Source: an uncultured Candidatus Saccharibacteria bacterium
GTDB lineage: Bacteria; Patescibacteriota; Minisyncoccia; Phycocordibacterales; XYD1-FULL-46-19
DNA length: 64,000 nucleotides
NCBI GenBank assembly: GCA_964639285.1
Contig: CAZXCI010000001.1
Location: forward strand, 42,343-106,342
Direction: 5' to 3'
Part shown: positions 10,538 through 39,317 of the stretch, piece by piece
Layout of the letters: every line of letters begins with the position of its first letter
Numbering within the stretch: position 1 is the first letter of the stretch
Notes under the pieces: model-generated
What the model was told of the DNA's origin: nothing
Seen by the model: only the letters and a program-made list of their open reading frames with translations
The model's database searches: none
Translations under genes and position numbers: made by a program

Positions 10538-11899
10538 TTGAACATGAAGACCATTTTAATCAGTAGTTTCCATAGCTTAATTTCTAGAAATATTCTGAAT
10601 GCGGGAGTTTTGCCCCTTCTTTTGCGGGAGGGGATAAGGGTTGTTTTACTGGTTCCTCAAAGTAAAATAGAGTATTTCCAAAAAAGTTTCGATTATGAGG
10701 GGGTTGAGGTTGTCGGCATTAATGTCCCAGAGAAACCTTTTGAGGGGCCATTATTTTTCCTTTCTCTCAGTTTGGTTGGCGTAAATAATCAGTTGGTTTG
10801 GGAGTGGAAGACGAGGGGGAGCTATCTTAAGTATTATATAGCTAATAGTCTAAATATCCTTTTTCGGCATTTTTTTGTTTTTCATCGATTTTTGCGTTTT
10901 TTTGCTAAATTTTATCTACGAAACAATATCTTTGAACCTACCTTTTCCCAGTATCAACCGGATTTAGTTTGTGCTACTGATATCTTTGGCCGAGAGGACC
11001 GGTCTCTCCTTATTGAGGCCAAACGGAGAAAGATAAAGACAGTGGGGCTAGTTCGCTCTTGGGATAATGCGACAACCAAGGGGGTTTTGTTGTCTGAGCC
11101 AGATTTTATTGTAACTCCCAACGGTGTTCTTCGAGACGAATTAATTTCTATCCATCAGGTTCAGCCTGGCAAGATTAAGGTTGCTGGGATTCCTCATTAT
11201 GATCAAATTTTGTCTGGGTGCTCTGTTTCGCGAGAAGATTTTTTTGCTGAGATGGGTTTAGATATAAAGAAGAAAACAATCCTCTTTGCTCCTGGTGGCA
11301 AAATTTTGTATAAACATGACAAGGAAATTCTTGCAGACTTAGAGGAATATCTCACTAATAGAGATTTTTGTTATCCTGTTCAGTTTTTAGTGAGACTTCC
11401 TCCTGGCGACAGGGTTGATATCTCGGGGGTAGTAAATAACCACAACTTTATAATTGATGATCCTGGGACTGATGCTAATAATCGCAAAAAAGAGAGGGAG
11501 ATGACCGAGAAAGATAATCAACGCTTAAATTGTTCTCTTTATTACAGTGATATCGTTTTGACCTTGATTTCTACTATGGTTATCGATGGCGTATCTTTTA
11601 ATAAGCCAGTTGTAGTTTGGGGCTTTGAACCGGCGGTTGGTCTTTCTGATCCTATAAAAAAGTTTACTAAATATGCCCACTTCAAAAAATTGATTGAAAC
11701 AGGACTAGTGACAGTCGCTTATTCTAGGGAAGAATTCCTTAAACAAATAAATGCTTTTTTAGAGAATCCTGACGTCAATAAGGATGACCGCCAAAAAATT
11801 CTTGATGCCTATACTTATAAACTTGATGGTCATTCCGCAGAACGGGTGTCCCAAATTATTTTGAATTTATTGCAGAACGATGTCGGGCTTACTAAGTAA
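10538..11899 (+). CDS. Putative GT-B glycosyl/glycerophosphotransferase (TagB/TagF-like) or sialyltransferase-like protein
   Basis: 453 aa. The AGIPHYDQI segment resembles the TagF-family GxPxxD region. Placed immediately upstream of the HAD-NeuA-NeuB module. Assignment is inferential. Confidence 0.3.
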   Translation: MNMKTILISSFHSLISRNILNAGVLPLLLREGIRVVLLVPQSKIEYFQKSFDYEGVEVVGINVPEKPFEGPLFFLSLSLVGVNNQLVWEWKTRGSYLKYYIANSLNILFRHFFVFHRFLRFFAKFYLRNNIFEPTFSQYQPDLVCATDIFGREDRSLLIEAKRRKIKTVGLVRSWDNATTKGVLLSEPDFIVTPNGVLRDELISIHQVQPGKIKVAGIPHYDQILSGCSVSREDFFAEMGLDIKKKTILFAPGGKILYKHDKEILADLEEYLTNRDFCYPVQFLVRLPPGDRVDISGVVNNHNFIIDDPGTDANNRKKEREMTEKDNQRLNCSLYYSDIVLTLISTMVIDGVSFNKPVVVWGFEPAVGLSDPIKKFTKYAHFKKLIETGLVTVAYSREEFLKQINAFLENPDVNKDDRQKILDAYTYKLDGHSAERVSQIILNLLQNDVGLTK

Positions 11900-12587
11900 A
11901 AATTTTGTGGCGAAAGCGAAGATTATTGTTTTTGACTTTGATGGTGTTTTTGTGCTTGATTCTGACGCTGTCTTTAAAAAAGAAGCTTGGAGCCGGGTGC
12001 TTCAACCCTGGGTTGGTCAATATCAAGTTTTTCTTGAGGAGGGGAATCGTCTTTATGGCTCTGGTAAACCGGGAGGAAGGAGAGAAATACTTCGTTATAT
12101 TCTTAGAAATCTTGGGCAATCTAGCCAGATGATTTCTGTCTTGGAGGAAAAAATTGTTCAAGAATTTGATAAATATGTGAATGAAAAGATATTAGACGCT
12201 GGGTTAGCGGAGGGGGCAAGGGAAATGCTACAAATATTATTTAACCGCAATATAAAGTTGTATCTTAATTCTGGGACAGAAACATCGGCTTTAGGTCGCG
12301 TTGTTCAAGGTCTTAAAATTAACCACTTTTTTTCTGGGGTTCTTGGTTCGACAAAAGATCCTTATGGTGGAAGTAAGATAGAAAATTTGGAATACATTGC
12401 CGCTCGCGAAAGAGTTAAGCCCGAGGCTGTTCTTTTTATTGGTGATCAGGATTCTGATTATCAGGCCGCTTTGGGTTTCAAATGTCAATTTGTTGGCTTT
12501 GCTAATAGGTGGAATGGTTGGGAGAGGAAAAGTGTTCCTTTCCCTGTCGTAGCTAAATTATCGGCTGTCCCTAAACTTATTATTTAG
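11880..12587 (+). CDS. HAD-superfamily hydrolase (possible nonulosonate-9-P or sugar phosphatase)
   Basis: HAD motif I VFDFDGVFV, C-terminal GDQDSDY (motif IV-like). Confidence 0.7.
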   Translation: MSGLLSKNFVAKAKIIVFDFDGVFVLDSDAVFKKEAWSRVLQPWVGQYQVFLEEGNRLYGSGKPGGRREILRYILRNLGQSSQMISVLEEKIVQEFDKYVNEKILDAGLAEGAREMLQILFNRNIKLYLNSGTETSALGRVVQGLKINHFFSGVLGSTKDPYGGSKIENLEYIAARERVKPEAVLFIGDQDSDYQAALGFKCQFVGFANRWNGWERKSVPFPVVAKLSAVPKLII

Positions 12588-26141: not shown

Positions 26142-27548
26142 ATGAAAAAGAAAATGGCGTTTCTGTTATTGGCGGCCTTCGCCGCCGTGGTTTTTGCTGG
26201 TTGTGCTCCGAAGGTTGAGGGAGTTTTCTATGACTCTCAAGGGGGCGTTGTCTATCAAGGTAAAGTTGCCTCTGGGCAACGGATCATGGTTGGCCAAGGA
26301 GGTTGGGCTTCCCTTCATATCTCTGGCTGTACCAGCCGGGGGGATGTCACTGTCGTTGCTGAAAAAGGGTGTTGTGGCCCGGGCACGACGGTAGTCATCG
26401 CCGGAGGTGGCCTCGCGGTGGTCTCAGTGGCTGTCTGGTCGATGGTGGATTTTCTTCTCGACCAAGACAACGGCTTCGATTACGTCGTTGGGCCGGTGTT
26501 CGGGGAGACCACTGTCTATGTCGGAGACGATTTTGTCTTTACTCTTCTTGTCGACGACGGCATTGAAGGCGAAGGCGAAGTTCCTGTCGAAGGTGAACCC
26601 GAAGGCGAGGGTGAATTTATCCCTCTGTCGGTGGAAATCTTGGCCCCGGTCAATGGGCGAGTTTTCAATGCCGGCGATGTCGCTACTGTCCGGGTTTTGC
26701 CGAATGGTGATCCGTCCTCGACGCCTTTGCGTCTTGTCGTCCGGAACGCTGAACTCGAAACCCGGGTGGCCGAGAATGTTGCCCCTGGAGTAGAGAAGAC
26801 GCTTGCGTTCACTCTTAATTTAGTTGGGACAGGAGCTTTCACGGCCTACCTTGAAGACAAGGATGGCGCTCATGTGACCACCTCGGTGACCTATTCGGTG
26901 ATCGTGCCTATCGAAGGCGAGCCTGTCGTCGAAGGTGAAGATGAAGGCGAACCGGTTGAAGGTGAGGGCGAGGGTTGTGCCGTTGTGCCGGACCTTTCGG
27001 GCCTGACCGAAAATCAAGCCCGAGCGGTCATTTCCTCGACCTGTCTGGTCGTCGGGACCGTTCTGTTCGTCGATGATTCTAACGTTCCGGCTGGCTATGT
27101 GGTCAGCTGGAATCCCACTGGGACGGTTTCCTGCGGGACGGCGATCAACCTCGTCATCTCGACCGGCCCTGTCATTGAAGGCGAAGGCGAAGCTCCCGTT
27201 GAGGGCGAATCTGAAGGCGAGGGCGAAGCCATCGAAGGTGAAGGCGAGTTCATCCCTCTGTCGGTAGAAATTCTCGCTCCTGCCAGTGGGCAAGTCTTCA
27301 ATATCGGAGACACGGTGACGGTCAGGGTCTTACCAAATGGCGATCCTTCTCTACGACCTTTGCGTCTTGTTGTCCGGAATGCGGAGCTCACGACTTGGAC
27401 GGTGGAAGATGTCACCCCTGGGGTGGAGGCAACTTTCACTTTTACAGTCGGGCTTTTTGGGCCGGGAGCTTTCACTGGTTATGTCGAGGATAGGAACGGG
27501 TTGTCTGTCACGACATATTGTCCCTATTCAGTGGCCATCCCCGAGTAA
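26142..27548 (+). CDS. GC-rich lipoprotein with PASTA domain and internally duplicated ~105-aa domain
   Basis: Lipobox LLAAFAAVVFAGC. EGE-rich linkers. PASTA-like VPDLSGLTENQARAVISSTCLVVGTV...VVSWNPTGTVSCGTAINLVISTGP. Two paralogous domains (EGEGEFIPLSVEILAP..VRVLPNGDPS..LRLVVRNAEL..) at about 26601-26925 and 27232-27545. Confidence 0.6.
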   Translation: MKKKMAFLLLAAFAAVVFAGCAPKVEGVFYDSQGGVVYQGKVASGQRIMVGQGGWASLHISGCTSRGDVTVVAEKGCCGPGTTVVIAGGGLAVVSVAVWSMVDFLLDQDNGFDYVVGPVFGETTVYVGDDFVFTLLVDDGIEGEGEVPVEGEPEGEGEFIPLSVEILAPVNGRVFNAGDVATVRVLPNGDPSSTPLRLVVRNAELETRVAENVAPGVEKTLAFTLNLVGTGAFTAYLEDKDGAHVTTSVTYSVIVPIEGEPVVEGEDEGEPVEGEGEGCAVVPDLSGLTENQARAVISSTCLVVGTVLFVDDSNVPAGYVVSWNPTGTVSCGTAINLVISTGPVIEGEGEAPVEGESEGEGEAIEGEGEFIPLSVEILAPASGQVFNIGDTVTVRVLPNGDPSLRPLRLVVRNAELTTWTVEDVTPGVEATFTFTVGLFGPGAFTGYVEDRNGLSVTTYCPYSVAIPE

Positions 27549-29502: not shown

Positions 29503-30945
29503 ATGTCATATAAGCCAACGATTGGCCTGGAGATTCATGTGGAGTTGAAGACAGCGACGAAAATGTTTTGTCGTTGCCTTAATGACCAAGAAGGCCTGCT
29601 TGCCGGTAGGCAGGAAAAACCCAATACTAATATCTGCCCGGTTTGTACCGCTCAGCCGGGAGCTTTGCCGGTTATCAACAAGGAAGCGGTGAGGCATGTC
29701 TTGCGCGTTGGCGTGGCCCTCGACGGTCAGCTTGCTGACTTCACCGAGTTTGACCGCAAGAATTATTTTTACCCCGATATTCCTAAGGGTTATCAGATTA
29801 GCCAATATAAGTATCCTCTCGTCTCTGGCGGTGAATTAGGTGGAGTGAAGATAACGAGGATTCATCTCGAAGAAGATACGGCCAAATCAACTCACAGTGG
29901 GGGAGTCGACGAGAGTTATGTTGACTTCAATCGCTCTAGTCTTCCCCTGATGGAACTGGTTACTGAACCGGTTATTCATGACGGGAAAACGGCTTCTCGT
30001 TTTGCTAAGGAATTACAGACTCTCATGCGTTATCTCGGTGCCTCGGAAGCCAATATGGAGAAGGGGCAGATGCGTTTGGAGGCGAATATTTCTGTCTCCG
30101 AGACGGATCAGCTGGGGACCAAAGTTGAGGTGAAGAATCTTAACTCTTTTCGTTCTGTCGAACGAGCTATTGATTTCGAAATTGAACGCCAGATTAAAGA
30201 ATTAGAAAAAGGTGGTAAGATCGTACAGGAAACTCGCGGTTGGGATGAGAACAAACAAATTACCTTCAGCCAGCGCCTGAAGGAGTCTTCTCATGATTAT
30301 CGTTATTTCCCTGATCCTGATTTGCCCAAACTTTTCTTGAGTGAGATTCCTGAGTTTAGTTTAGAAGCGATCAAGAAGTCTTTGCCGGAGTTGCCTTGGC
30401 AGAAGCGCCAACACTTTACCGAAACTTTTGGTCTTAAGGGTGAAGATGTGGAAGTCTTCGTGCAGAATCATAAATTGGCCGAATTTTTCACCGAAGTAGC
30501 TGAGGGCTTTGATCTTAGTTTAGAAACAGCCAAGGCCTATCTTCAGACGGCGGCAAATTATATTACCTCCGATCTCTTAGGTTTGGTAGCTGATACAGAG
30601 GATTACACTTTGCCAGATACTAAGCATTATGCGGATTTGATTAAGATGGTTAGCGAGAAAGAAGTTTCTTCGCGTGGGGCCAAAGATATTCTAGCGGTAA
30701 TGATTAAAGAAGGAGGGGATCCGCGGGAAATTGCTGAAGCCAGAGGTCTCTTCCAAGTTCATGATGAGAGTGCCATCCTGGCGATTGTTGATAAAGTCAT
30801 TGCCGACAATCAGGATGTCTTCGCCGAATTCAAGGGGGGCAAGGAGAAATCACTCCAATTCCTCATTGGTCAAGCGATGAAGGAGAGCCGTGGCTCCGCC
30901 AATCCCGAAATTCTCAAAAAATTGTTTGAAGCGAAAGTAAATTAA
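29503..30945 (+). CDS. gatB: Aspartyl/glutamyl-tRNA(Asn/Gln) amidotransferase subunit B
   Basis: IGLEIHVELKT.TKMFCRC...CPVCTAQPGALPV and the C-terminal YqeY-like domain. Confidence 0.9.
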   Translation: MSYKPTIGLEIHVELKTATKMFCRCLNDQEGLLAGRQEKPNTNICPVCTAQPGALPVINKEAVRHVLRVGVALDGQLADFTEFDRKNYFYPDIPKGYQISQYKYPLVSGGELGGVKITRIHLEEDTAKSTHSGGVDESYVDFNRSSLPLMELVTEPVIHDGKTASRFAKELQTLMRYLGASEANMEKGQMRLEANISVSETDQLGTKVEVKNLNSFRSVERAIDFEIERQIKELEKGGKIVQETRGWDENKQITFSQRLKESSHDYRYFPDPDLPKLFLSEIPEFSLEAIKKSLPELPWQKRQHFTETFGLKGEDVEVFVQNHKLAEFFTEVAEGFDLSLETAKAYLQTAANYITSDLLGLVADTEDYTLPDTKHYADLIKMVSEKEVSSRGAKDILAVMIKEGGDPREIAEARGLFQVHDESAILAIVDKVIADNQDVFAEFKGGKEKSLQFLIGQAMKESRGSANPEILKKLFEAKVN

Positions 30946-30964: not shown

Positions 30965-33430
30965 ATGGAAAACTCGCGAGAGGATAAATCTGCGGAAAAT
31001 AAAGAAGGCCTCAATTTCTATGAGGTAGCTCAAAGACGAAGAGATCTAAGACAGGAATTAAAGAGAGTTAGGCCCGAACTCGATAACCAGGATCCGCTCC
31101 TTGATCGGGCTTATAAGGAACCACTGGCTGAGGTTGAGGAACAAGCCTCTCGTTTCAAAATCGCTGATTTCAAAAAGCCAGAAAATTCCTCTGGTTTGAG
31201 AGGGGCCATAGATTTTCTTAAAGGACAAAAAGCTTCTTACGAAAAGTCTTTGGAATCAGAAACTTCTCCGGCTATTGCCCCAGAATTAGCCGAGGTTCTC
31301 AGGATGAAAGAGATTGTCAAAAGATATAAAGAATTTCGTCTTCGTCGAATGCTGGAAATTCTTGATCGAAGCATCTCGCCCACCACCAGAAAAAGGAATG
31401 AGTCAATTTTGCGTCTAATCACAGAGGAAATCAAAAATAGTGAAGAAGCCCTACAAAAAATGGATCTTCCTCTCCTTCGCCAAGCGGAGCTTCTGGGCTA
31501 TAAAGAAGACTTGGCGCGCAGTGGTCATATTTGTATTACTCCCAGTGTGGCCAAAGATTTGGAGGCGATCGGGGATCGAATGCTTACGGGCAAACCGATT
31601 CTCCTTCATGGACCAACGGGGACGGGTAAAACTTCCTTGGCTCGTTTTGCCACAGCTCATTTTATGGGGAAGGATCCGGAGATGGTCTTTTGTAATCCGC
31701 AAACGAAACAATCAGATGTCTACGGTAAAACCGGACTTCGCGCTGTTCCTGGTGGGGAGGGAGCGATTGAAACAGTCGAGATATATGGTCCGCTAGCTCG
31801 AGCGATGATTGAAGGAAAGCCTGTTATCTTCGACGAGTTCACCGCTTTGCCAAAAGAGCAAATGGTCTTCATCAAGGGAATTTTTAATGCCAAAATCGGG
31901 GACAAAATAAATATTAGTGGGAATGGGGTTGTTGAAATCAAGCCTGGTTTCCAAATGATTTTCACGGCGAATTTGAAATCAGAGAAAAATCCAGAGAGAC
32001 AGGATCTTCCGCCAGAAATTGCTCGCGAGTTTGAACAAAATAATCTAGAAATTAAATACAATGACCCGGCCGAGACTTATGACATCATCCTCTCACGTCT
32101 CTTGGGAAAAGATGATTCCTTAGAACTCTCTTTCTTTGATTTGAATACTACTTTGCCTAAATTATGTGAGGCTATGTCTGAAATCCAAGAGTCTTACACC
32201 AACGAAACAGATAAAGAAGTAGCTCGTCGAGCGGGAGCAATGGATGCTTCTGGTAAGGTTTATTCTTTGAAAAAATTTGTGATGACTCAGGGCTCGATTG
32301 AGGCCATCTTATCTTCGTGGTTGGTTGAGAAGCAAACGGGTAAAAAGGAGAGAAGTTTTTCGGAATTCTTAGATGAACGTCTGAAGACGGCTTTAACTTT
32401 CAAAGAGTACCCTAAAGAGGATAGAATTTTGGCGGCTAAAATCTTAGCCTCTAAGGGTTTCTTATTGACACTCACGGCCAAAGATCTTGATTTGCCGGAG
32501 GATATATTTAGTTTTAATACCATCAGGCAAATGCGCGGAGAAGATGCGACTGAAGAATTAAAAAATAAATCAGGAGACGTTAAACGGCTTAATTTGCGCG
32601 AAGTGGCCGAATTGGATCCCTTCAACAAGAGAGCTAACATGCTAAGACAACAGGCGGAAGATCTCCTCGGCCTCGGTGATCGAGAAGGGGATCCTTTTTT
32701 GAGTGATTTTGACAGAGCGTTTGGGGGAGTTTTTGCTGGAGAGAAAAAGGGTATTATTTCCACCCCCTTCACCTACACCAACCCCGACACTAACCAGGTG
32801 GAACTCCAAGAAACCATCACTCTTGATCTCGAAGCTAAACTCCAATCAACTCTCGCTTTCTACCAATCCATCAACCTTGATATTCCCCCTGACTTTGAAG
32901 ACCAAATCCGTGACATCTGGTCTCGTCATCAAGACGAGATTGAACAAGCCATTGCTACCCAAGGCTTCAATGACCTTCTCCTCCTTCCCCCCACCCCTAA
33001 TCTCCCAGACTTAGCAAACAAAACCGAGATGGAACAAGGCTACTGGACTTCCGACAACTTCACCGAAGGTGGCGGTTTCGCCCAAGCCAAGAGCCAAAAC
33101 ACTAACCAAACCCGTCTTCTCTTAGTCCACCACACCCAAAATCTCCAAGACCACCCTCTCCTCAAGCAAACTCTCAATATCAAGGGCCAAGACGTTAACT
33201 TAAGTGAAGCCCTCACCTTAGAAGACTACCTTCTCTTCCAGAGACAATATTTTGCTCAAAACAACAAACACTTAGATGAAGACGGCTGGACCTGGCTAGC
33301 CACTCATTCCGGCCCTCGCCTGGTCTGCGCCCGCTGGTTTCCTGGCGATCACCGGCTCCGCGTCGATGCGGGTGACCTCACCAGCCAGGATGGCTATCTC
33401 GGTGTCCGCCCCACCCGCTGTTTCTTGTGA
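30965..33430 (+). CDS. DGR target protein 1: AAA+ (MoxR/CobS-like, AAA_5) ATPase fused to C-terminal C-type-lectin-fold variable domain
   Basis: Walker A ILLHGPTGTGKTSLARFA, Walker B PVIFDEFTAL. The C-terminal 225 aa are identical to the tail of ORF 37193-38155 and end in VR1 (GPRLVCARWFPGDHRLRVDAGDLTSQDGYLGVRPTRCF). Confidence 0.75.
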   Translation: MENSREDKSAENKEGLNFYEVAQRRRDLRQELKRVRPELDNQDPLLDRAYKEPLAEVEEQASRFKIADFKKPENSSGLRGAIDFLKGQKASYEKSLESETSPAIAPELAEVLRMKEIVKRYKEFRLRRMLEILDRSISPTTRKRNESILRLITEEIKNSEEALQKMDLPLLRQAELLGYKEDLARSGHICITPSVAKDLEAIGDRMLTGKPILLHGPTGTGKTSLARFATAHFMGKDPEMVFCNPQTKQSDVYGKTGLRAVPGGEGAIETVEIYGPLARAMIEGKPVIFDEFTALPKEQMVFIKGIFNAKIGDKINISGNGVVEIKPGFQMIFTANLKSEKNPERQDLPPEIAREFEQNNLEIKYNDPAETYDIILSRLLGKDDSLELSFFDLNTTLPKLCEAMSEIQESYTNETDKEVARRAGAMDASGKVYSLKKFVMTQGSIEAILSSWLVEKQTGKKERSFSEFLDERLKTALTFKEYPKEDRILAAKILASKGFLLTLTAKDLDLPEDIFSFNTIRQMRGEDATEELKNKSGDVKRLNLREVAELDPFNKRANMLRQQAEDLLGLGDREGDPFLSDFDRAFGGVFAGEKKGIISTPFTYTNPDTNQVELQETITLDLEAKLQSTLAFYQSINLDIPPDFEDQIRDIWSRHQDEIEQAIATQGFNDLLLLPPTPNLPDLANKTEMEQGYWTSDNFTEGGGFAQAKSQNTNQTRLLLVHHTQNLQDHPLLKQTLNIKGQDVNLSEALTLEDYLLFQRQYFAQNNKHLDEDGWTWLATHSGPRLVCARWFPGDHRLRVDAGDLTSQDGYLGVRPTRCFL

Positions 33431-33478
33431 GGTTAGGTTGTATTTTTGATTTTGGTTATTGTTTGAGATTTTTGGTTT
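32765..33478 (+). repeat. 714-bp direct repeat copy A (C-terminal variable domain + VR + 3' flank)
   Basis: Identical to 37490-38203 where compared: the protein tail is identical over 225 aa, alternative-frame translations are identical, and the VR and 55 bp downstream are identical. Confidence 0.85.
33311..33423 (+). other. DGR variable repeat VR1
   Basis: 113-bp homology to TR (33702-33814). All 18 mismatches fall at positions where TR has adenine. GC-rich 3' end ggtgtccgccccacccgctgttt (IMH-like). Confidence 0.85.
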
Positions 33479-33701
33479 ATTTTTTAAAAATTCTTCGGTG
33501 AGTATGATTGATCTGACTTAGGGTCGGTCTGCCGAAGCGCTCAATAAAACTGAAGCTGGATTTGTTTTGAGAGCAAATTCATAAAGTCTTGATCTGTTAG
33601 AGTGGAAATAAAAGAAACAGCAGTTTTGCCTTGGGGAAGTGCCCTGATAAACGAAGTATTGTTTCCAAGAGAGCGGGGATAAAGCAAAACTAATGTGGGA
33701 C

Positions 33702-33814
33702 GGCCCTCGCCTGGTCAACGCCAACTGGAATCCTGACAATCACCAGCTCAACGTCAATGCGAATGACCTCACCAACCAGAATAGCAATCTCGGTGTCCGC
33801 CCCACCCGCTGTTT
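33702..33814 (+). other. DGR template repeat (TR)
   Basis: Encodes an AAY-rich template (GPRLVNANWNPDNHQLNVNANDLTNQNSNLGVRPTRCF). The listed ORF 33693-33998 is this template, not a gene. Confidence 0.85.
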
Positions 33815-34189
33815 TTATGCCAAGTTTCGAGAATATTTTATCCAACCTTGGGTCATCCGACCTATTTCTTGGAGTTTACTCTCAATCTCTAAATATTGCT
33901 TAGTGTCTATGATTTGGCAATTTAGAGAAAGGCGAAAAAGGATTTTGAGCAGTTCCACTTTAGTATTGGCTCGGAGGAGGACTTTTTCTTTTTCGTAGCG
34001 GGAGGATTGATTAGCTAGAGTAAAAATTTCCATTGATTCCAAAAGGGAATTTTCTAGTTTTTCTCCTAGGGTGTAACGCTCGTGTTTGGGAAATTTGAAG
34101 ATTAATTTGTGCGTAATCTCGTATAAGACGAGAAGTTTGATAACAATTGGTATCTCTAATTTTGAATAATCACAATGGCCGTTGTCCAT
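33815..34189 (-). CDS. avd: Avd-like accessory variability determinant (four-helix-bundle protein, TIGR02436-like)
   Basis: 124 aa. DYSKLEIPIVIKLL...FPKHERYTLGEKLENSLLE...ANTKVELLKILFRLSLNCQIIDTKQYLEIESKLQEIGRMTQGWIK matches the bAvd/IVS-protein pattern. On the opposite strand to RT, with a 15-bp overlap of their 5' ends. Confidence 0.65.
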   Translation of the reverse strand: MDNGHCDYSKLEIPIVIKLLVLYEITHKLIFKFPKHERYTLGEKLENSLLESMEIFTLANQSSRYEKEKVLLRANTKVELLKILFRLSLNCQIIDTKQYLEIESKLQEIGRMTQGWIKYSRNLA

Positions 34190-35155
34190 AAAAGTTATGA
34201 CGAATTATTTAGCCTTTATAATCTTTTTCGTGCCTGGAGGAAGTTTCGGCGGGGCAAGACCAGAAAAAAAGATATTCTGGATTACGAATTGCATTTGGAA
34301 GACAACCTCTTTAATTTATATGAAGCTTTATGCCAGGATATTTACGAACATTCAGCTTATCAATATTTTCAAATTTTTGACAATAAAAAGAGGGATATCT
34401 CTAAAGCGGAGGTGAGAGATAGAATTGTCCACCAAATTATTTATGATTATATACTTGGTATCTTTGAACCAGACTTTATATCCGATTCTTATGCTTCCAG
34501 ATTAAATAAAGGATCATACAAAGCTCTCGGGGCTTTTCAGTACTTTATCAAACTTAATCATTACTCTCAAAAAACTTGCTTTGTTCTGAAGTGCGATGTT
34601 AAAAAATATTTTGATAACATTAGTCACGAGATCCTTCTCCGTCTGATTAAAGAAAGAGTTGTTGATGATAAAGTATTTTTTATTATTCAAAAAATAATAA
34701 AAAGTTATTCTTCCGGTGATAATCGAGGTATTCCTCTTGGCAATATCACGAGCCAGATTTTTGCTAACATTTACCTCAATCAACTGGATCATTATGTTAA
34801 AAAAGAATTAGGTTGCCGTTTTTATGTTAGGTACAACGATGATTTTGTCATTCTTTCAGAATCTTCCCGTTGACTGGAAGAAATCCGAAGCAAAATAATT
34901 GCTTTTTCAGAAGAAGAGTTATCTCTAAATATTCCTCTTGGAAAAACAAGTTTGAGGAAAATAACTTGGGGCGTGGATTTTCTCGGATTTACTGTCCTGC
35001 CGGGGGCGATTCTCTTAAGAGACAAGACGAAAAGTAAGATGTTTGCCAATATTAGCTCACGTAATATCCATTCATATTTTGGCATTTTAAAGCACTGTAA
35101 TTCTTATAACCTGAGGCGGAAGATACTCTCAATGGATAAACTGGACAGAGTTTGA
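34175..35155 (+). CDS. DGR reverse transcriptase (single frame interrupted by one in-frame TGA at 34871-34873)
   Basis: N-terminal SYDELFSLYNLFRAWRKFRRGK. RT motif IPLGNITSQIFANIYLNQLDHYV. YVRYNDDFVIL (YxDD). After the TGA the same frame continues into the thumb region ...WGVDFLGFTV... ending at 35155. Total 326 codons. Confidence 0.85.
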
Positions 35156-35167
35156 TAAAATATTGGC

Positions 35168-37171
35168 ATGGAAGAGCCTAATGATATCGAGACAAAAAAT
35201 GGAGAGGATATATCCCCAGAGACAGAAAATGCCCACGCTGAGGCGGTGGCCTTGGTGGAGAAAAATCGCGACTTTTTTGAACATTACGCTAAGGGGAAGA
35301 TTCAAATTGAACCGGCACCGGCGGGGCTGGGGACTTTTGCCTTTGATCTAGAAAAAAATACGATTTATCTCAACTCGCTTTTTTTTCAAAAAATGGGGTT
35401 GCCCGAAGAGAAAACAATTTTTGCTACTCTCCACGAGATCGAGCACTTTATGGAAAAAATCCAAATTCTCTCGGAGGAAGGCGGGCAAAGAACTTTTACC
35501 AAATTTCTCTCCCGTCTTAAGGCCTCGCGTGCTTTCTCTTTGATAGATAATTGTGTGGCTGATATCAGGCAGAATCGAGCGGTTATCTCAAAAACCAATA
35601 GAGGGATGGCTGAGCTGGAGACGACGATGTACCAGGAAGATCTTTTTGCGGAAACCGATTTTCTTGCCCGACCTCGACATATTCAATTTAGTGAAGCGCT
35701 TTTGCGGGAATCGCGAGTGCCGAGTGAGAAGTGCCAAGTGGCGCCCGAAGTGAGACAGGCGCTGGAAGAAATAGCCAAAGTTTCCAATCTGTTGGAAGTG
35801 ATGACCAATCCGGAGACTCCGATGTCTTTACGCTTGAAATTGCAAGACAAATTTATCTGGCCCAAGGTGCAAGCTCTTTTGGATCAAGACATTGAAGAGA
35901 AGAAAAAACAAAAGGAAGAAGATAAAAAGAAAAAAGGAGGCGCCGATACTCTCGATGGAGCGGAAGGGGCGGAAGGCGGTGCGGGCGATGGGGGAGCCGG
36001 CGAAAATGATAATAAAGAAAGAGGGAAAAAAGGAGGAGATAACAAAGCTCAAACAGAAGACGGGGAAGAGAGTCAGGGAGGAGAAGGAGAGAGTAAGGCG
36101 GGTGGCGAAAATGATGAAGAAGAAACTGATCCCAACAAAATTTTTGCAAAGGATTATGAGGAGGCCGAGAGCAAATTCCCTGAGGCCGTTCCGTTAGAGA
36201 AAATTGAGGAGGCCTTCAAAAAATGGCAAGAGGCGCAAAAAAACCAAAATACCCCCGACCAGGCTGATGAAGCCTACGCCCAAAATCTTGGCGTGAAGAA
36301 GGAAGCCTTACAAAATTATCGTCGACTAGTTGAGTCCCTGGAGAAAATTGTGAATCCTGAAACTGATATGCCCGTGATTGAAGAATTGCGGAATCTTTTT
36401 AATCGGATAATCTCCAAGAGACTTAAATTGGCCCAAGCTCCTAAATACCCGGTATCGGAGGGGGACGAGTTAGTTGACCCGGCGCAATTGGTGGCCGACG
36501 TTAAAGCGGGGAATTTTGAGCCCAAGGTCTGGGAAGATGTAGAGATCAAGGAAAAGAAGGGTGACAAATTCGGCGAAGTGGAGATCACTCTTATCTGTGA
36601 CCGTTCTGGTTCGATGAATGGGGTTAAAGCGGAGGAACAAAGAAAGTCGGCAGTCTTAGTGATGGAGGCACTGAAAGAATTTGCCGAACTTTGCGAGCAG
36701 GAAAAAATAAATATTGATAAACCTTTGGAAGTTAGATCAGAGATTTACAGCTTTGCCAGTAGTGAGGATGACGACAAACCACTGAAGAAGATGTCCCCGG
36801 AGCTAGGCGAGGTCGAGCGGATAAATGTTTTAGAGAAGCTCAAAGAGATAACTGGTTCCACCACCGATTTTCGTTGTTTGGAAGCGATTGCCGCTAATCT
36901 CTCAGAAGAAATCAGGATCAAATTAAAAATTGCGGAATTGAAAAAGATCGTGATTGTCTTCACTGATGGCGAGAGCGACGATCCGGTTCGAACCCAAGTG
37001 AATCTTAAGAATTTACGCGACAACGGCGTTTTTGTTATCGGTGTGGGCATCACTTCCGCTGGTCAATCAGTTTTATCAACCTATGCGCCTGAAGCTCAAG
37101 TGGTGGAAGATGTCTCTCGTCTGCCCCTTGTTTTGGCCGAGCTTCTCAAGGAGCATTTACATAATCTCTAA
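35168..37171 (+). CDS. vWA-domain protein with N-terminal HExxH region and acidic low-complexity linker (CobT-like partner of the AAA ATPase)
   Basis: HEIEHF (HExxH). A long E/K/G/D-rich linker (KKKQKEEDKKKKGGADTLDGAEGAEGG...). MIDAS DxSxS in EITLICDRSGSMNG. Von Willebrand A fold at the C-terminus. Confidence 0.7.
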   Translation: MEEPNDIETKNGEDISPETENAHAEAVALVEKNRDFFEHYAKGKIQIEPAPAGLGTFAFDLEKNTIYLNSLFFQKMGLPEEKTIFATLHEIEHFMEKIQILSEEGGQRTFTKFLSRLKASRAFSLIDNCVADIRQNRAVISKTNRGMAELETTMYQEDLFAETDFLARPRHIQFSEALLRESRVPSEKCQVAPEVRQALEEIAKVSNLLEVMTNPETPMSLRLKLQDKFIWPKVQALLDQDIEEKKKQKEEDKKKKGGADTLDGAEGAEGGAGDGGAGENDNKERGKKGGDNKAQTEDGEESQGGEGESKAGGENDEEETDPNKIFAKDYEEAESKFPEAVPLEKIEEAFKKWQEAQKNQNTPDQADEAYAQNLGVKKEALQNYRRLVESLEKIVNPETDMPVIEELRNLFNRIISKRLKLAQAPKYPVSEGDELVDPAQLVADVKAGNFEPKVWEDVEIKEKKGDKFGEVEITLICDRSGSMNGVKAEEQRKSAVLVMEALKEFAELCEQEKINIDKPLEVRSEIYSFASSEDDDKPLKKMSPELGEVERINVLEKLKEITGSTTDFRCLEAIAANLSEEIRIKLKIAELKKIVIVFTDGESDDPVRTQVNLKNLRDNGVFVIGVGITSAGQSVLSTYAPEAQVVEDVSRLPLVLAELLKEHLHNL

Positions 37172-37192: not shown

Positions 37193-38155
37193 ATGTCCCC
37201 CGAATCCCTCTCTCCCCACCCCGACCAAACCCAAGAGGAACTCCGTCCTCTCTATCAACAAAGACTCAATTCTCTCAAAGATCCTCTCCATCAAGGCCGT
37301 GATCAATATGCCCAAGACCTAAAGAACGGTCTCTTTGATGATCAAGAGGGTGAAGAACCAGGCCAAGGAGAGAAACGCCAAGAGGAAGCTCAACAAAAGC
37401 TTCTTAAACTCCTCGCCCAAGCCCAGAAACTCAAAGCTCTCCTCGACAGCGGAGAACCTCTTCCTCAATTATCTCCCGTCATCACCACTCCCTTCACCTA
37501 CACCAACCCCGACACTAACCAGGTGGAACTCCAAGAAACCATCACTCTTGATCTCGAAGCTAAACTCCAATCAACTCTCGCTTTCTACCAATCCATCAAC
37601 CTTGATATTCCCCCTGACTTTGAAGACCAAATCCGTGACATCTGGTCTCGTCATCAAGACGAGATTGAACAAGCCATTGCTACCCAAGGCTTCAATGACC
37701 TTCTCCTCCTTCCCCCCACCCCTAATCTCCCAGACTTAGCAAACAAAACCGAGATGGAACAAGGCTACTGGACTTCCGACAACTTCACCGAAGGTGGCGG
37801 TTTCGCCCAAGCCAAGAGCCAAAACACTAACCAAACCCGTCTTCTCTTAGTCCACCACACCCAAAATCTCCAAGACCACCCTCTCCTCAAGCAAACTCTC
37901 AATATCAAGGGCCAAGACGTTAACTTAAGTGAAGCCCTCACCTTAGAAGACTACCTTCTCTTCCAGAGACAATATTTTGCTCAAAACAACAAACACTTAG
38001 ATGAAGACGGCTGGACCTGGCTAGCCACTCATTCCGGCCCTCGCCTGGTCTGCGCCCGCTGGTTTCCTGGCGATCACCGGCTCCGCGTCGATGCGGGTGA
38101 CCTCACCAGCCAGGATGGCTATCTCGGTGTCCGCCCCACCCGCTGTTTCTTGTGA
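37193..38155 (+). CDS. DGR target protein 2: standalone C-type-lectin-fold variable protein
   Basis: 320 aa. Unique roughly 95-aa N-terminus, then the same 225-aa domain as target 1 ending in an identical VR. TATAAT at 37180-37185 only 7 nt upstream of the ATG. Confidence 0.7.
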   Translation: MSPESLSPHPDQTQEELRPLYQQRLNSLKDPLHQGRDQYAQDLKNGLFDDQEGEEPGQGEKRQEEAQQKLLKLLAQAQKLKALLDSGEPLPQLSPVITTPFTYTNPDTNQVELQETITLDLEAKLQSTLAFYQSINLDIPPDFEDQIRDIWSRHQDEIEQAIATQGFNDLLLLPPTPNLPDLANKTEMEQGYWTSDNFTEGGGFAQAKSQNTNQTRLLLVHHTQNLQDHPLLKQTLNIKGQDVNLSEALTLEDYLLFQRQYFAQNNKHLDEDGWTWLATHSGPRLVCARWFPGDHRLRVDAGDLTSQDGYLGVRPTRCFL

Positions 38156-38203
38156 GGTTAGGTTGTATTTTTGATTTTGGTTATTGTTTGAGATTTTTGG
38201 TTT
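37490..38203 (+). repeat. 714-bp direct repeat copy B
   Basis: See copy A (32765-33478). Confidence 0.85.
38036..38148 (+). other. DGR variable repeat VR2 (identical to VR1)
   Basis: Same 113 bp as VR1. Matches TR except at TR adenines. Confidence 0.8.
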
Positions 38204-38270
38204 TGTCTTGGTTTTTGTTACAATGTCTCTATTAATATCTAATCAAACCTATTTTTATATAAATAAAATT

Positions 38271-39317
38271 ATGGATAATCAAATTTCTAACGGGGGAAAC
38301 AAAAAAGTACGAGTGGGAATTAACGGTCTGGGGCGAATTGGGCGCGCTTTTCTAAAATTAGCAATTAAGAATCCGAATATCCAAATTGTAGGAGCTAACG
38401 ATTTGGGCGATCTTGAGAATATTGCTTATCTTTTAAAATATGACAGTGCCTACGGCAAATTTGCTGGGACAATCGCTACTGGCGACGGAGTTCTAATTGT
38501 GGATAATCAAGAAATTAAATTTTTTCAAGAAAAAGATCCGGCGCAATTGCCCTGGGGTGATTTGCAGGTTGATGTTGTTGTGGAATCGACTGGCGTTTTT
38601 GAAACTTTTGCCAAAGCCAAAGCTCACTTGGATGCGGGCGCGCGCAAGGTCGTGATCTCGGCGCCGGTGAAGGATGAGCCGGTGGCCGGTATTCCGGGCG
38701 GAACACATTTAATTAATATCAATGACGAAAATCTGTCAGACAAAGTTATCACGTCTAATGGTTCTTGCACCACCAATTGCGCGGCGCCGGTGATAAAAAT
38801 TCTTGATGAGGCGATTGGCGTGGAGAAGGCCCTGCTCAACACAACGCACGGTTATACGGCAACGCAAAAATTAGTTGATGTGGCTGATGCCAAGGATTGG
38901 CGACGGGGGAGAGCGGGTGCGATTAACCTTATTCCTTCTTCGACTGGCGCGGCAATTGCCGTGGGACAAGTGATCCCTTCAATGCAGGGCAAATTTGATG
39001 GGATTGCGGTGCGAGTTCCAGTGATTACGGGGTCAATGATTGATATTACTTTTATCGCTAAGAAAAATACCAGTGTGGAAGAAGTTAACAGCGCCTTAGA
39101 AAAAGCGGCGAGTGATCCTAAATGGCAATCAACTTTTACTGCAACCAAAGAGGCTCTCGTTTCCTCGGACATTTTGGGTAGCCCCTTTGCCTCTATTGCT
39201 GATCTCTCTTATACCAAGGTGGTAGGGGGCAATCTTGTCAAAGTGATGGCTTGGTATGACAATGAAGCCGGTTATACCAACACCCTCGTCGAACACGTGA
39301 TTAAATTGGGGCAGTAG
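38271..39317 (+). CDS. gap: Glyceraldehyde-3-phosphate dehydrogenase, type I
   Basis: VRVGINGLGRIGR (NAD binding). Active site SNGSCTTNCAAPV. The ATG at 38271 is preferred over the upstream 38184 extension. Confidence 0.9.
   Translation: MDNQISNGGNKKVRVGINGLGRIGRAFLKLAIKNPNIQIVGANDLGDLENIAYLLKYDSAYGKFAGTIATGDGVLIVDNQEIKFFQEKDPAQLPWGDLQVDVVVESTGVFETFAKAKAHLDAGARKVVISAPVKDEPVAGIPGGTHLININDENLSDKVITSNGSCTTNCAAPVIKILDEAIGVEKALLNTTHGYTATQKLVDVADAKDWRRGRAGAINLIPSSTGAAIAVGQVIPSMQGKFDGIAVRVPVITGSMIDITFIAKKNTSVEEVNSALEKAASDPKWQSTFTATKEALVSSDILGSPFASIADLSYTKVVGGNLVKVMAWYDNEAGYTNTLVEHVIKLGQ

Follow-up and report, generated by a model that had tools for sequence, protein, structure and literature searches.

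We describe here a diversity-generating retroelement (DGR) cassette in which a predicted cytoplasmic MoxR-class AAA+ ATPase carries the domain rewritten by the DGR and is encoded together with a von Willebrand factor A (vWA) partner protein. The cassette lies in a 64,000-nucleotide stretch of DNA, referred to as the window, from an uncultured, ultra-small Candidatus Saccharibacteria bacterium belonging to the candidate phyla radiation (CPR; GenBank assembly GCA_964639285.1, contig CAZXCI010000001.1, positions 42,343 to 106,342 of the forward strand). On balance we consider it probable that this is a self-contained cassette of Paceibacteria/Parcubacteria-type bacteria, in which the ATPase with its rewritten C-terminus, small paralogs of the variable domain and a partner with a vWA metal-ion-dependent adhesion site (MIDAS) and an HExxH motif would serve together as a sensor. 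An original prediction, made from the sequence alone, had placed a DGR between an AAA+ gene and a vWA gene; the template repeat (TR), an inverted avd gene and a reverse transcriptase (RT) gene were indeed found there, in an order that is conserved in relatives. According to the listing of open reading frames (ORFs), the genes between 29.5 and 39.3 kb of the window are tightly packed and mostly on one strand. The features of the cassette, including the variable repeats (VRs) of its two target genes, are as follows (aa, amino acids).

30965-33430, + strand: target 1, 821 aa, made of N-terminal helices, an AAA_5 domain, a helical middle, a flexible linker and a C-terminal VR-bearing domain
31598-31993, + strand: AAA_5 domain (Pfam), aa 212-343 of target 1
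31610-31633, + strand: Walker A motif GPTGTGKT of target 1
31823-31837, + strand: Walker B motif VIFDE of target 1
32753-33427, + strand: C-terminal VR-bearing domain, aa ~597-821 of target 1, fold unclassified
33310-33423, + strand: VR1, variable repeat of target 1
33701-33814, + strand: TR
33815-34189, - strand: avd, a 124-aa DGR accessory four-helix-bundle protein, inverted with respect to the other cassette genes
34175-35155, + strand: DGR RT frame, 327 codons, with one in-frame TGA
34871-34873, + strand: in-frame TGA, RT codon 233
35168-37171, + strand: vWA partner, 667 aa, made of an N-terminal HExxH domain, an acidic linker, a helical region and a C-terminal vWA domain
35432-35446, + strand: HEIEH motif, aa 89-93 of the vWA protein
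35894-36133, + strand: acidic Gly/Glu/Lys-rich low-complexity linker, aa ~243-322 of the vWA protein
36584-37093, + strand: vWA domain with a complete MIDAS (D478-x-S480-x-S482, T565, D600)
37193-38155, + strand: target 2, 320 aa, made of a three-helix N-terminal domain (aa ~14-86) and a VR-bearing domain
38035-38148, + strand: VR2 of target 2, identical to VR1
32760-33478 and 37485-38203, + strand: copies 1 and 2 of a 719-bp duplicate

Repeats, reverse transcriptase and DGR activity

A 114-nt sequence was present three times in the window (33310-33423, 33701-33814 and 38035-38148), the middle copy being the TR. Each of the two VRs differs from the TR at 18 positions, all 18 of which fall on the 28 adenines of the TR, and VR/TR differences confined to adenines were also observed in nine related loci; this pattern is far beyond chance. 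The TR contains 18 variable codons, ten of which are AAY and none of which can be mutated to a stop, and about 10^16.6 protein variants are possible. At their 3′ end the VR and TR have the GC-rich sequence GTCCGCCCCACCCGC in common, divergence starting after CTGTTT. No stable hairpin of the kind that follows the GC-rich IMH of phage BPP-1 was detected downstream of the VR (z-score of 0.18), and an Rfam scan gave no match inside the cassette. The product of avd was recognised by Pfam bAvd (E 1.7e-16, 61.1 bits for a cutoff of 40) and matched NCBIfam DivGenRetAVD with an E-value of 4.7e-21 and a score of 75 bits, just below the cutoff of 80. The RT frame matched RVT_1 (E 1.4e-16), with GNITSQ and YNDD motifs visible, and its homologs were found to be intact proteins of 326-344 aa.

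The in-frame TGA at RT codon 233 raised the rival explanation that the DGR of the window is decaying or inactive, its RT being truncated by a nonsense codon and its VRs homogenised by gene conversion; fragmented RTs in some relatives (loci L024 and L030) point the same way. The same TGA was however found (at ~1575-1577) in L035, a contig from another sample with 95.4% DNA identity to the window, and the next relative, L036 (RT at 391-1371), carries TGG (Trp) at this position. When the RT of the window was compared with that of L035, 20 synonymous and eight nonsynonymous differences were counted upstream of the TGA, and 19 and nine, respectively, in the 94 codons downstream. The ratio being the same on both sides, the 3′ part of the RT gene is still under purifying selection. 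Furthermore, the TRs of the window and L035 are identical (114/114) and the VR1 sequences differ at 20 sites, 17 of which correspond to TR adenines, from which it appears that diversification continued in the lineage bearing the UGA.

The other argument for decay comes from the duplicate. Its two 719-bp copies are 100% identical bar one mismatch at the 5′ edge, and span the variable domain, the VR and 48 nt past the stop codon. The related loci show only 60-90% identity between the constant parts of paralogs, and there the VRs of a single locus are 13-27 nt apart from one another and depart from the TR at its adenines; identity of VR1 and VR2 was never seen in them. Its cause is either a gene conversion of very recent date or a collapse of the assembly, the latter suggested by the independent contig L035, which breaks off exactly at both borders of the 719-bp repeat. 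The adenine-specific mutations and these comparisons show a true DGR with a history of activity, and we regard its decay in the window as unlikely.

The data suggest that the UGA is read through, an RT acting in trans being less likely. The stop lies in a UGA-C context, which is a leaky terminator. A change of genetic code was considered and rejected: TGA ends 14 of the 60 long ORFs, and the RT is the only merge obtained under code 4, codes 4 and 25 being the candidates. No suppressor tRNA was found in the 64-kb window, the sole tRNA of which is a tRNA-Thr.

The ATPase, its variable domain and the vWA partner

Target 1 was predicted to be an AAA+ ATPase with a P-loop and a Walker B motif, and both are present in the 821-aa ORF (HGPTGTGKTS at aa 215-224 and VIFDEF at aa 287-292). 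Hidden Markov model (HMM) searches with Pfam placed AAA_5 at aa 212-343 of this protein (E 5e-11, 43.2 bits, cutoff of 22) and VWA at aa 473-642 of the 667-aa protein (E 5e-11, 43.6 bits, cutoff of 23.8), both above the gathering threshold. In an alignment of 81 target 1 homologs, GPTGTGKT, FDEF and the sensor-1 residue N336 were invariant, and R354, a candidate arginine finger that aligns with the RF motif of NorQ, was kept in 76. For these residues, the concern that the AAA domain might be degenerate was thus not borne out. The closest solved relative in PDB profile searches was NorQ (E 7.6e-7), a MoxR ATPase whose working partner NorD is a vWA protein, and CbbQ was matched weakly; the top NCBIfam match was GvpN (3.4e-7), and the bpMoxR HMM remained below threshold (E 0.025). 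An AlphaFold2 (AF2) model of target 1 had an overall predicted local distance difference test (pLDDT) score of 85, the C-terminal domain exceeding 90. Its secondary structure placed beta-hairpins at aa 254-274 and 314-324, which by position would correspond to the helix-2 insert and to the hairpin that precedes sensor 1 in this clade. The assignment of target 1 as a non-degenerate MoxR-class AAA+ protein is supported by these motif and profile matches. As stated in PMC13036017, MoxR ATPases typically cooperate with VWA proteins.

The predicted cytoplasmic character of the target also held, since neither a signal peptide nor a transmembrane segment was predicted in target 1, nor in the other two of the three cassette proteins screened (maximum 19-residue hydropathy of 1.33).

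The vWA protein was described originally as having an acidic linker, a MIDAS motif and an HExxH region, all of which were found in the 667-aa ORF. Across 52 vWA homologs no variation was seen at the MIDAS residues D478, S480, T565 and D600, with S482 kept in at least 90%, and the four residues H89, E90, H93 and E96 of the HExxH region are invariant in 52/52; the alignment is length-variable at the linker. The closest PDB matches of the vWA domain were extracellular proteins. Within aa 1-250 (35168-35920), D132, H171 and other residues are also conserved, and a conserved strand precedes the HExxH motif. When this strand-plus-HExxH segment was compared with the minigluzincin MJ1213 (selecase), a non-significant E-value of 0.47 was obtained. 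By these motifs the N-terminal domain resembles a small zincin and may be a metallopeptidase, possibly the effector of the system.

The pairing had been likened to CobS/CobT. What stands of this proposal is the general pairing of AAA_5 with vWA; membership of the family does not, as the CobT_C profile gave a best value of 0.059, below threshold, in seven of the 52 vWA homologs, and no cobalamin context is present. No family-level HMM match to CobS, CobT, BchD, CbbQ_C or NorD was obtained for the window proteins, and no cobalamin, chlorophyll or nitric oxide reductase (NOR) gene was seen in the locus context, the neighbours being gatB and gap. Because CobT_C is sub-threshold and the N-terminal 250 aa are without a significant match, the vWA protein is, by sequence comparison, like CobT and BchD in layout only and not a member of their families.

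Target 2 has its C-terminal ~221 aa in common with target 1. For this variable domain a C-type lectin (CLec) fold, or one like that of formylglycine-generating enzyme (FGE), had been expected. The fold is modelled with a pLDDT above 90, yet none of the Pfam, PDB or fold matches was significant. Specifically, nothing relevant was retrieved from Pfam at E<=10 with the isolated domains, the TR-encoded version or distant members, nor in PDB profile searches with alignment A1 and the more diverse alignment A5. Alignment of the VR by hhalign with phage DGR targets (FGE-type, DUF1566-type, Mtd and hankyphage) put it in register with FGE-type and hankyphage VRs at P ~0.05, in a test that is weak, known CLec classes giving 0.0015-0.11 against each other. 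The in-register patterns are g.RvV.s.W...L.V.A...lG.R..R and R..rGg.W...L.l..arS...iGFR.A. A divergent CLec fold is plausible on this basis, though not shown. Such CPR VRs were likewise left unclassified by Wu et al. 2018 (PMC5758913).

The variable domain belongs to a narrow family: of 1.84 billion cluster representatives, the small-target profile retrieved only 317 at E<=1e-3. Among long proteins with the variable domain, AAA_5 was present in 9/10 and any other recognisable N-terminal domain in 0/10; as far as these searches reach, the domain has only two settings, fusion with AAA_5 and a small protein of its own. Seven loci (L014, L017, L020, L024, L030, L031 and L032; proteins P0073-P0120) code for AAA orthologs in which aa 1-595 are kept and the C-terminal variable domain is unrelated. 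One such alternative domain reads ...GSLVR.S.G.W.VP.A.W.GS.W.R.A.WL...RVVLLEI, and the RT and Avd of these loci are more divergent. A Pfam scan of the alternative domains gave no CLec-type match. This joint occurrence of an alternative C-terminal domain with a divergent RT and Avd points to an exchange of the VR domain along with the DGR core, as one module.

The AF2 model of target 2 (pLDDT of 91.9) has three helices in the N-terminal domain. The profile of this conserved domain (37232-37450, aa ~14-86) gave borderline matches to Vps4 MIT domains, with E-values of 0.0045-0.05, so that it is weakly MIT-like; Pfam MIT was matched weakly in 27/95 small targets (best 0.023), and Foldseek gave an E-value of 1.5 to MITD1. 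A derivation of the small target as a copy of the region that precedes the VR domain in the AAA protein was rejected (hhalign probability of 0.14%), and the N-terminal domain has no homology to any part of that protein.

Conservation and genomic context

The groups with the strongest enrichment in DGRs include CPR bacteria. Homology searches returned 277 AAA-type homologs, many of them full-length, 394 vWA-type and 122 small-target homologs, and those with names came almost all from Parcubacteria/Paceibacteria-type CPR (Paceibacterota, Parcubacteria, Taylorbacteria, Zambryskibacteria and others). For synteny, the window proteins were used as queries against 34 related loci, 18 of which extend far enough to be informative. 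The recurrent order was the ATPase target gene (AAA-VR), zero or one small target, the TR, the inverted avd, the RT, the vWA gene and a small target. The vWA gene was present in 16/18 informative loci and the RT lay between the AAA and vWA genes in 13; in L033 the vWA gene lies upstream. This recurrent order, with the vWA gene in nearly all informative loci, argues for a conserved cassette and not for a recent insertion. The gene set is syntenic across many genomes, and the description of the DGR as inserted, which implies a recent event, has to be dropped in favour of an arrangement ancestral to the whole family.

In two loci, L008 (2525-10181) and L021 (10001-15379), AAA-VR and vWA genes are accompanied by up to three small VR paralogs, while avd and RT are both missing from the locus; either the DGR core has been lost or it acts from elsewhere in the genome. 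In L001 the cassette is interrupted by an inserted AbiEi/AbiEii toxin-antitoxin pair (10647-12022), with the AAA-VR gene on one side of it and the first small target on the other.

The genes flanking the cassette vary from genome to genome. Those of the window are the following.

29503-30945: gatB, upstream neighbour of target 1
38184-39317: gap (glyceraldehyde-3-phosphate dehydrogenase), downstream neighbour of target 2

Elsewhere in the window, at 26142-27548, a 468-aa predicted lipoprotein (signal ...VFAGC) is encoded by locally GC-rich DNA (0.52 against ~0.40-0.45 for the window). Two long repeats lie within this protein, along with several low-complexity linkers rich in EGE; it is unrelated to the DGR.

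Proposed role, alternatives and known systems

We propose that an AAA+ ring acts with the vWA protein, by analogy with NorQ/NorD, CbbQ/CbbO and RavA/ViaA, and that the hypervariable domain provides a changeable, putative ligand-binding surface. Such a surface would allow ATP-driven remodelling or signalling to be steered towards new targets inside the cell. Extra adaptors or competitors are what the small paralogs could be, and the HExxH domain on the vWA protein, as a possible metallopeptidase, may be the output. The most likely role, by parallel with the DGR-linked MoxR-vWA systems that occur in cyanobacteria and in purple sulfur bacteria, would be recognition of changing foreign or host proteins in a conflict or immunity-like sensor. 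CPR bacteria mostly lack CRISPR. A more elaborate version of this proposal, which we put forward only tentatively, is that of a CPR-specific, DGR-programmed ATPase with an orphan variable domain, an obligatory HExxH-vWA partner and MIT-like adaptors, which would act as an anticipatory, immunity-like intracellular sensor with RT dosage set via UGA read-through.

Several observations weigh against the proposed sensor. Among the related loci, L020 and L031 have no vWA gene near the DGR, and L008 and L021 have no RT. The N-terminal ~250 aa of the vWA protein gave no significant peptidase-family, Pfam or PDB match, the variable domain, for want of a significant Pfam, PDB or fold match, is of unclassified fold, and the cassette contains neither VMAP nor a recognisable effector (nuclease, TIR, or caspase or trypsin peptidase). 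The mechanism is, across the whole family, drawn by analogy. Most CPR RTs, moreover, fall in a clade apart from those of conflict-system DGRs (Doré et al. 2024, PMC10907252).

Two further explanations concern the function of the cassette. The variable proteins might be exported non-classically for binding of an episymbiont to its host, the ATPase serving in assembly or export; such a function is the one generally proposed for DGR targets of CPR and DPANN. DGR targets have been implicated mostly in cell-cell or virus-cell attachment (PMC8144416) and host-cell interaction is a role suggested for CPR and DPANN DGRs (Doré et al. 2024, PMC10907252); vWA/MIDAS domains are also classic adhesion modules, and their extracellular nearest PDB matches would fit such a role. 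It is at odds with the lack of a predicted signal peptide or transmembrane segment in all three proteins, with the fusion of the variable domain to an ATPase that has invariant catalytic residues and requires cytoplasmic ATP, and with the absence of conserved secretion genes nearby, the flanks differing between genomes. We consider surface attachment improbable, about as much so as the decay of the DGR discussed above.

A chaperone dedicated to inserting a metal or maturing a cofactor, of the CobS/CobT, BchI/BchD or NorQ/NorD type, is what the naming in the original prediction implies. With the variable domain as a mere docking module, it would account for NorQ being the nearest solved relative of the AAA domain and for the layout of the vWA protein, in which an N-terminal domain, an acidic linker and a C-terminal vWA domain follow one another as in CobT and BchD, with CobT_C weakly matched in 7/52 homologs. 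Against it stand the missing family-level matches and the lack of cobalamin, chlorophyll or NOR gene context reported above, and a fixed client would need no 10^16 variants of a binding site. This explanation is very unlikely, and the intracellular sensor remains the reading that we prefer.

The fusion of a DGR target to an AAA ATPase, which had been thought unusual, is not new. AAA-ATPase-fused targets were reported to be the commonest CPR target architecture (Paul et al. 2017, as summarised by Doré et al. 2024, PMC10907252), and Wu et al. 2018 (PMC5758913) listed CPR targets in which P-loop NTPase motifs occur (category g1) as well as UVR4 targets that match the Midasin AAA domain. The window cassette resembles these in its CPR host and in its AAA-type P-loop protein with a C-terminal VR; the TR, avd and RT, multiple targets per locus and the lack of transmembrane segments or signal peptides are also common to both, the match being one of architecture. 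No mention of the vWA/MIDAS-HExxH partner, the N-terminal domain of the small paralogs or the in-frame UGA of the RT was found in the CPR DGR literature, a scope that does not extend to Paul et al. 2017 itself.

The systems closest in composition are the DGR-linked MoxR-vWA-VMAP ternary systems of cyanobacteria and gammaproteobacteria (Kaur et al. 2020, PMC7159879; Doré et al. 2024, PMC10907252). In both cases a MoxR AAA+ protein is encoded together with a vWA protein and with a DGR-diversified domain for ligand binding, putative in the present case, the targets are predicted to be cytoplasmic, and a long and a short target are paired in some loci; in the ternary systems the vWA component occasionally carries a fused metallopeptidase. 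The two differ in that the variable domain is carried by the ATPase here and is usually fused to the vWA protein there, and in that VMAP, an adaptor (Trypco) and a TIR, caspase or trypsin effector are lacking here; the host is a CPR bacterium instead of a multicellular one. Pfam and PADLOC scans of the window gave no VMAP-family match, and no such gene was seen in the cassette. With the classical pairs (NorQ/NorD, CbbQ/CbbO, RavA/ViaA, CobS/CobT and BchI/BchD, and also GvpN) the cassette has in common an AAA_5 protein, with hairpins placed as expected for the helix-2-insert clade, beside a MIDAS vWA gene, but it is without a fixed client, metabolic context or family-level HMM match. Its ATPase has in addition N-terminal helices (~200 aa), an extensive middle region of helices and the hypervariable C-terminus, and its vWA protein adds the HExxH N-terminal domain. 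The STAND/NACHT NTPase-CLec targets of cyanobacteria and Thiohalocapsa (PMC7517822; PMC10907252) are likewise intracellular NTPases with a C-terminal DGR-variable domain, read as tunable sensors; they have STAND NTPases and recognisable FGE-type CLec variable domains, in contrast to the AAA_5/MoxR ring encoded here.

The conserved HExxH-vWA partner may be new, and it may link the DGRs of CPR bacteria to the DGR-coupled MoxR-vWA systems of other phyla. The cassette defines a compact four-protein system that is amenable to reconstitution. Whether CPR targets are genuinely non-membrane-bound was left open by Roux et al. 2021; from the present cassette it can be argued that a major class of such targets resides in the cytoplasm and belongs to an ATP-driven machine of the MoxR-vWA type. 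Doré et al. 2024 (PMC10907252) suggest that the ATPase may transduce signals sensed by the C-terminal region; their further suggestion, that the AAA-fused targets of CPR bacteria work like the DGR-tuned sensors of multicellular bacteria, is supported by the cassette.

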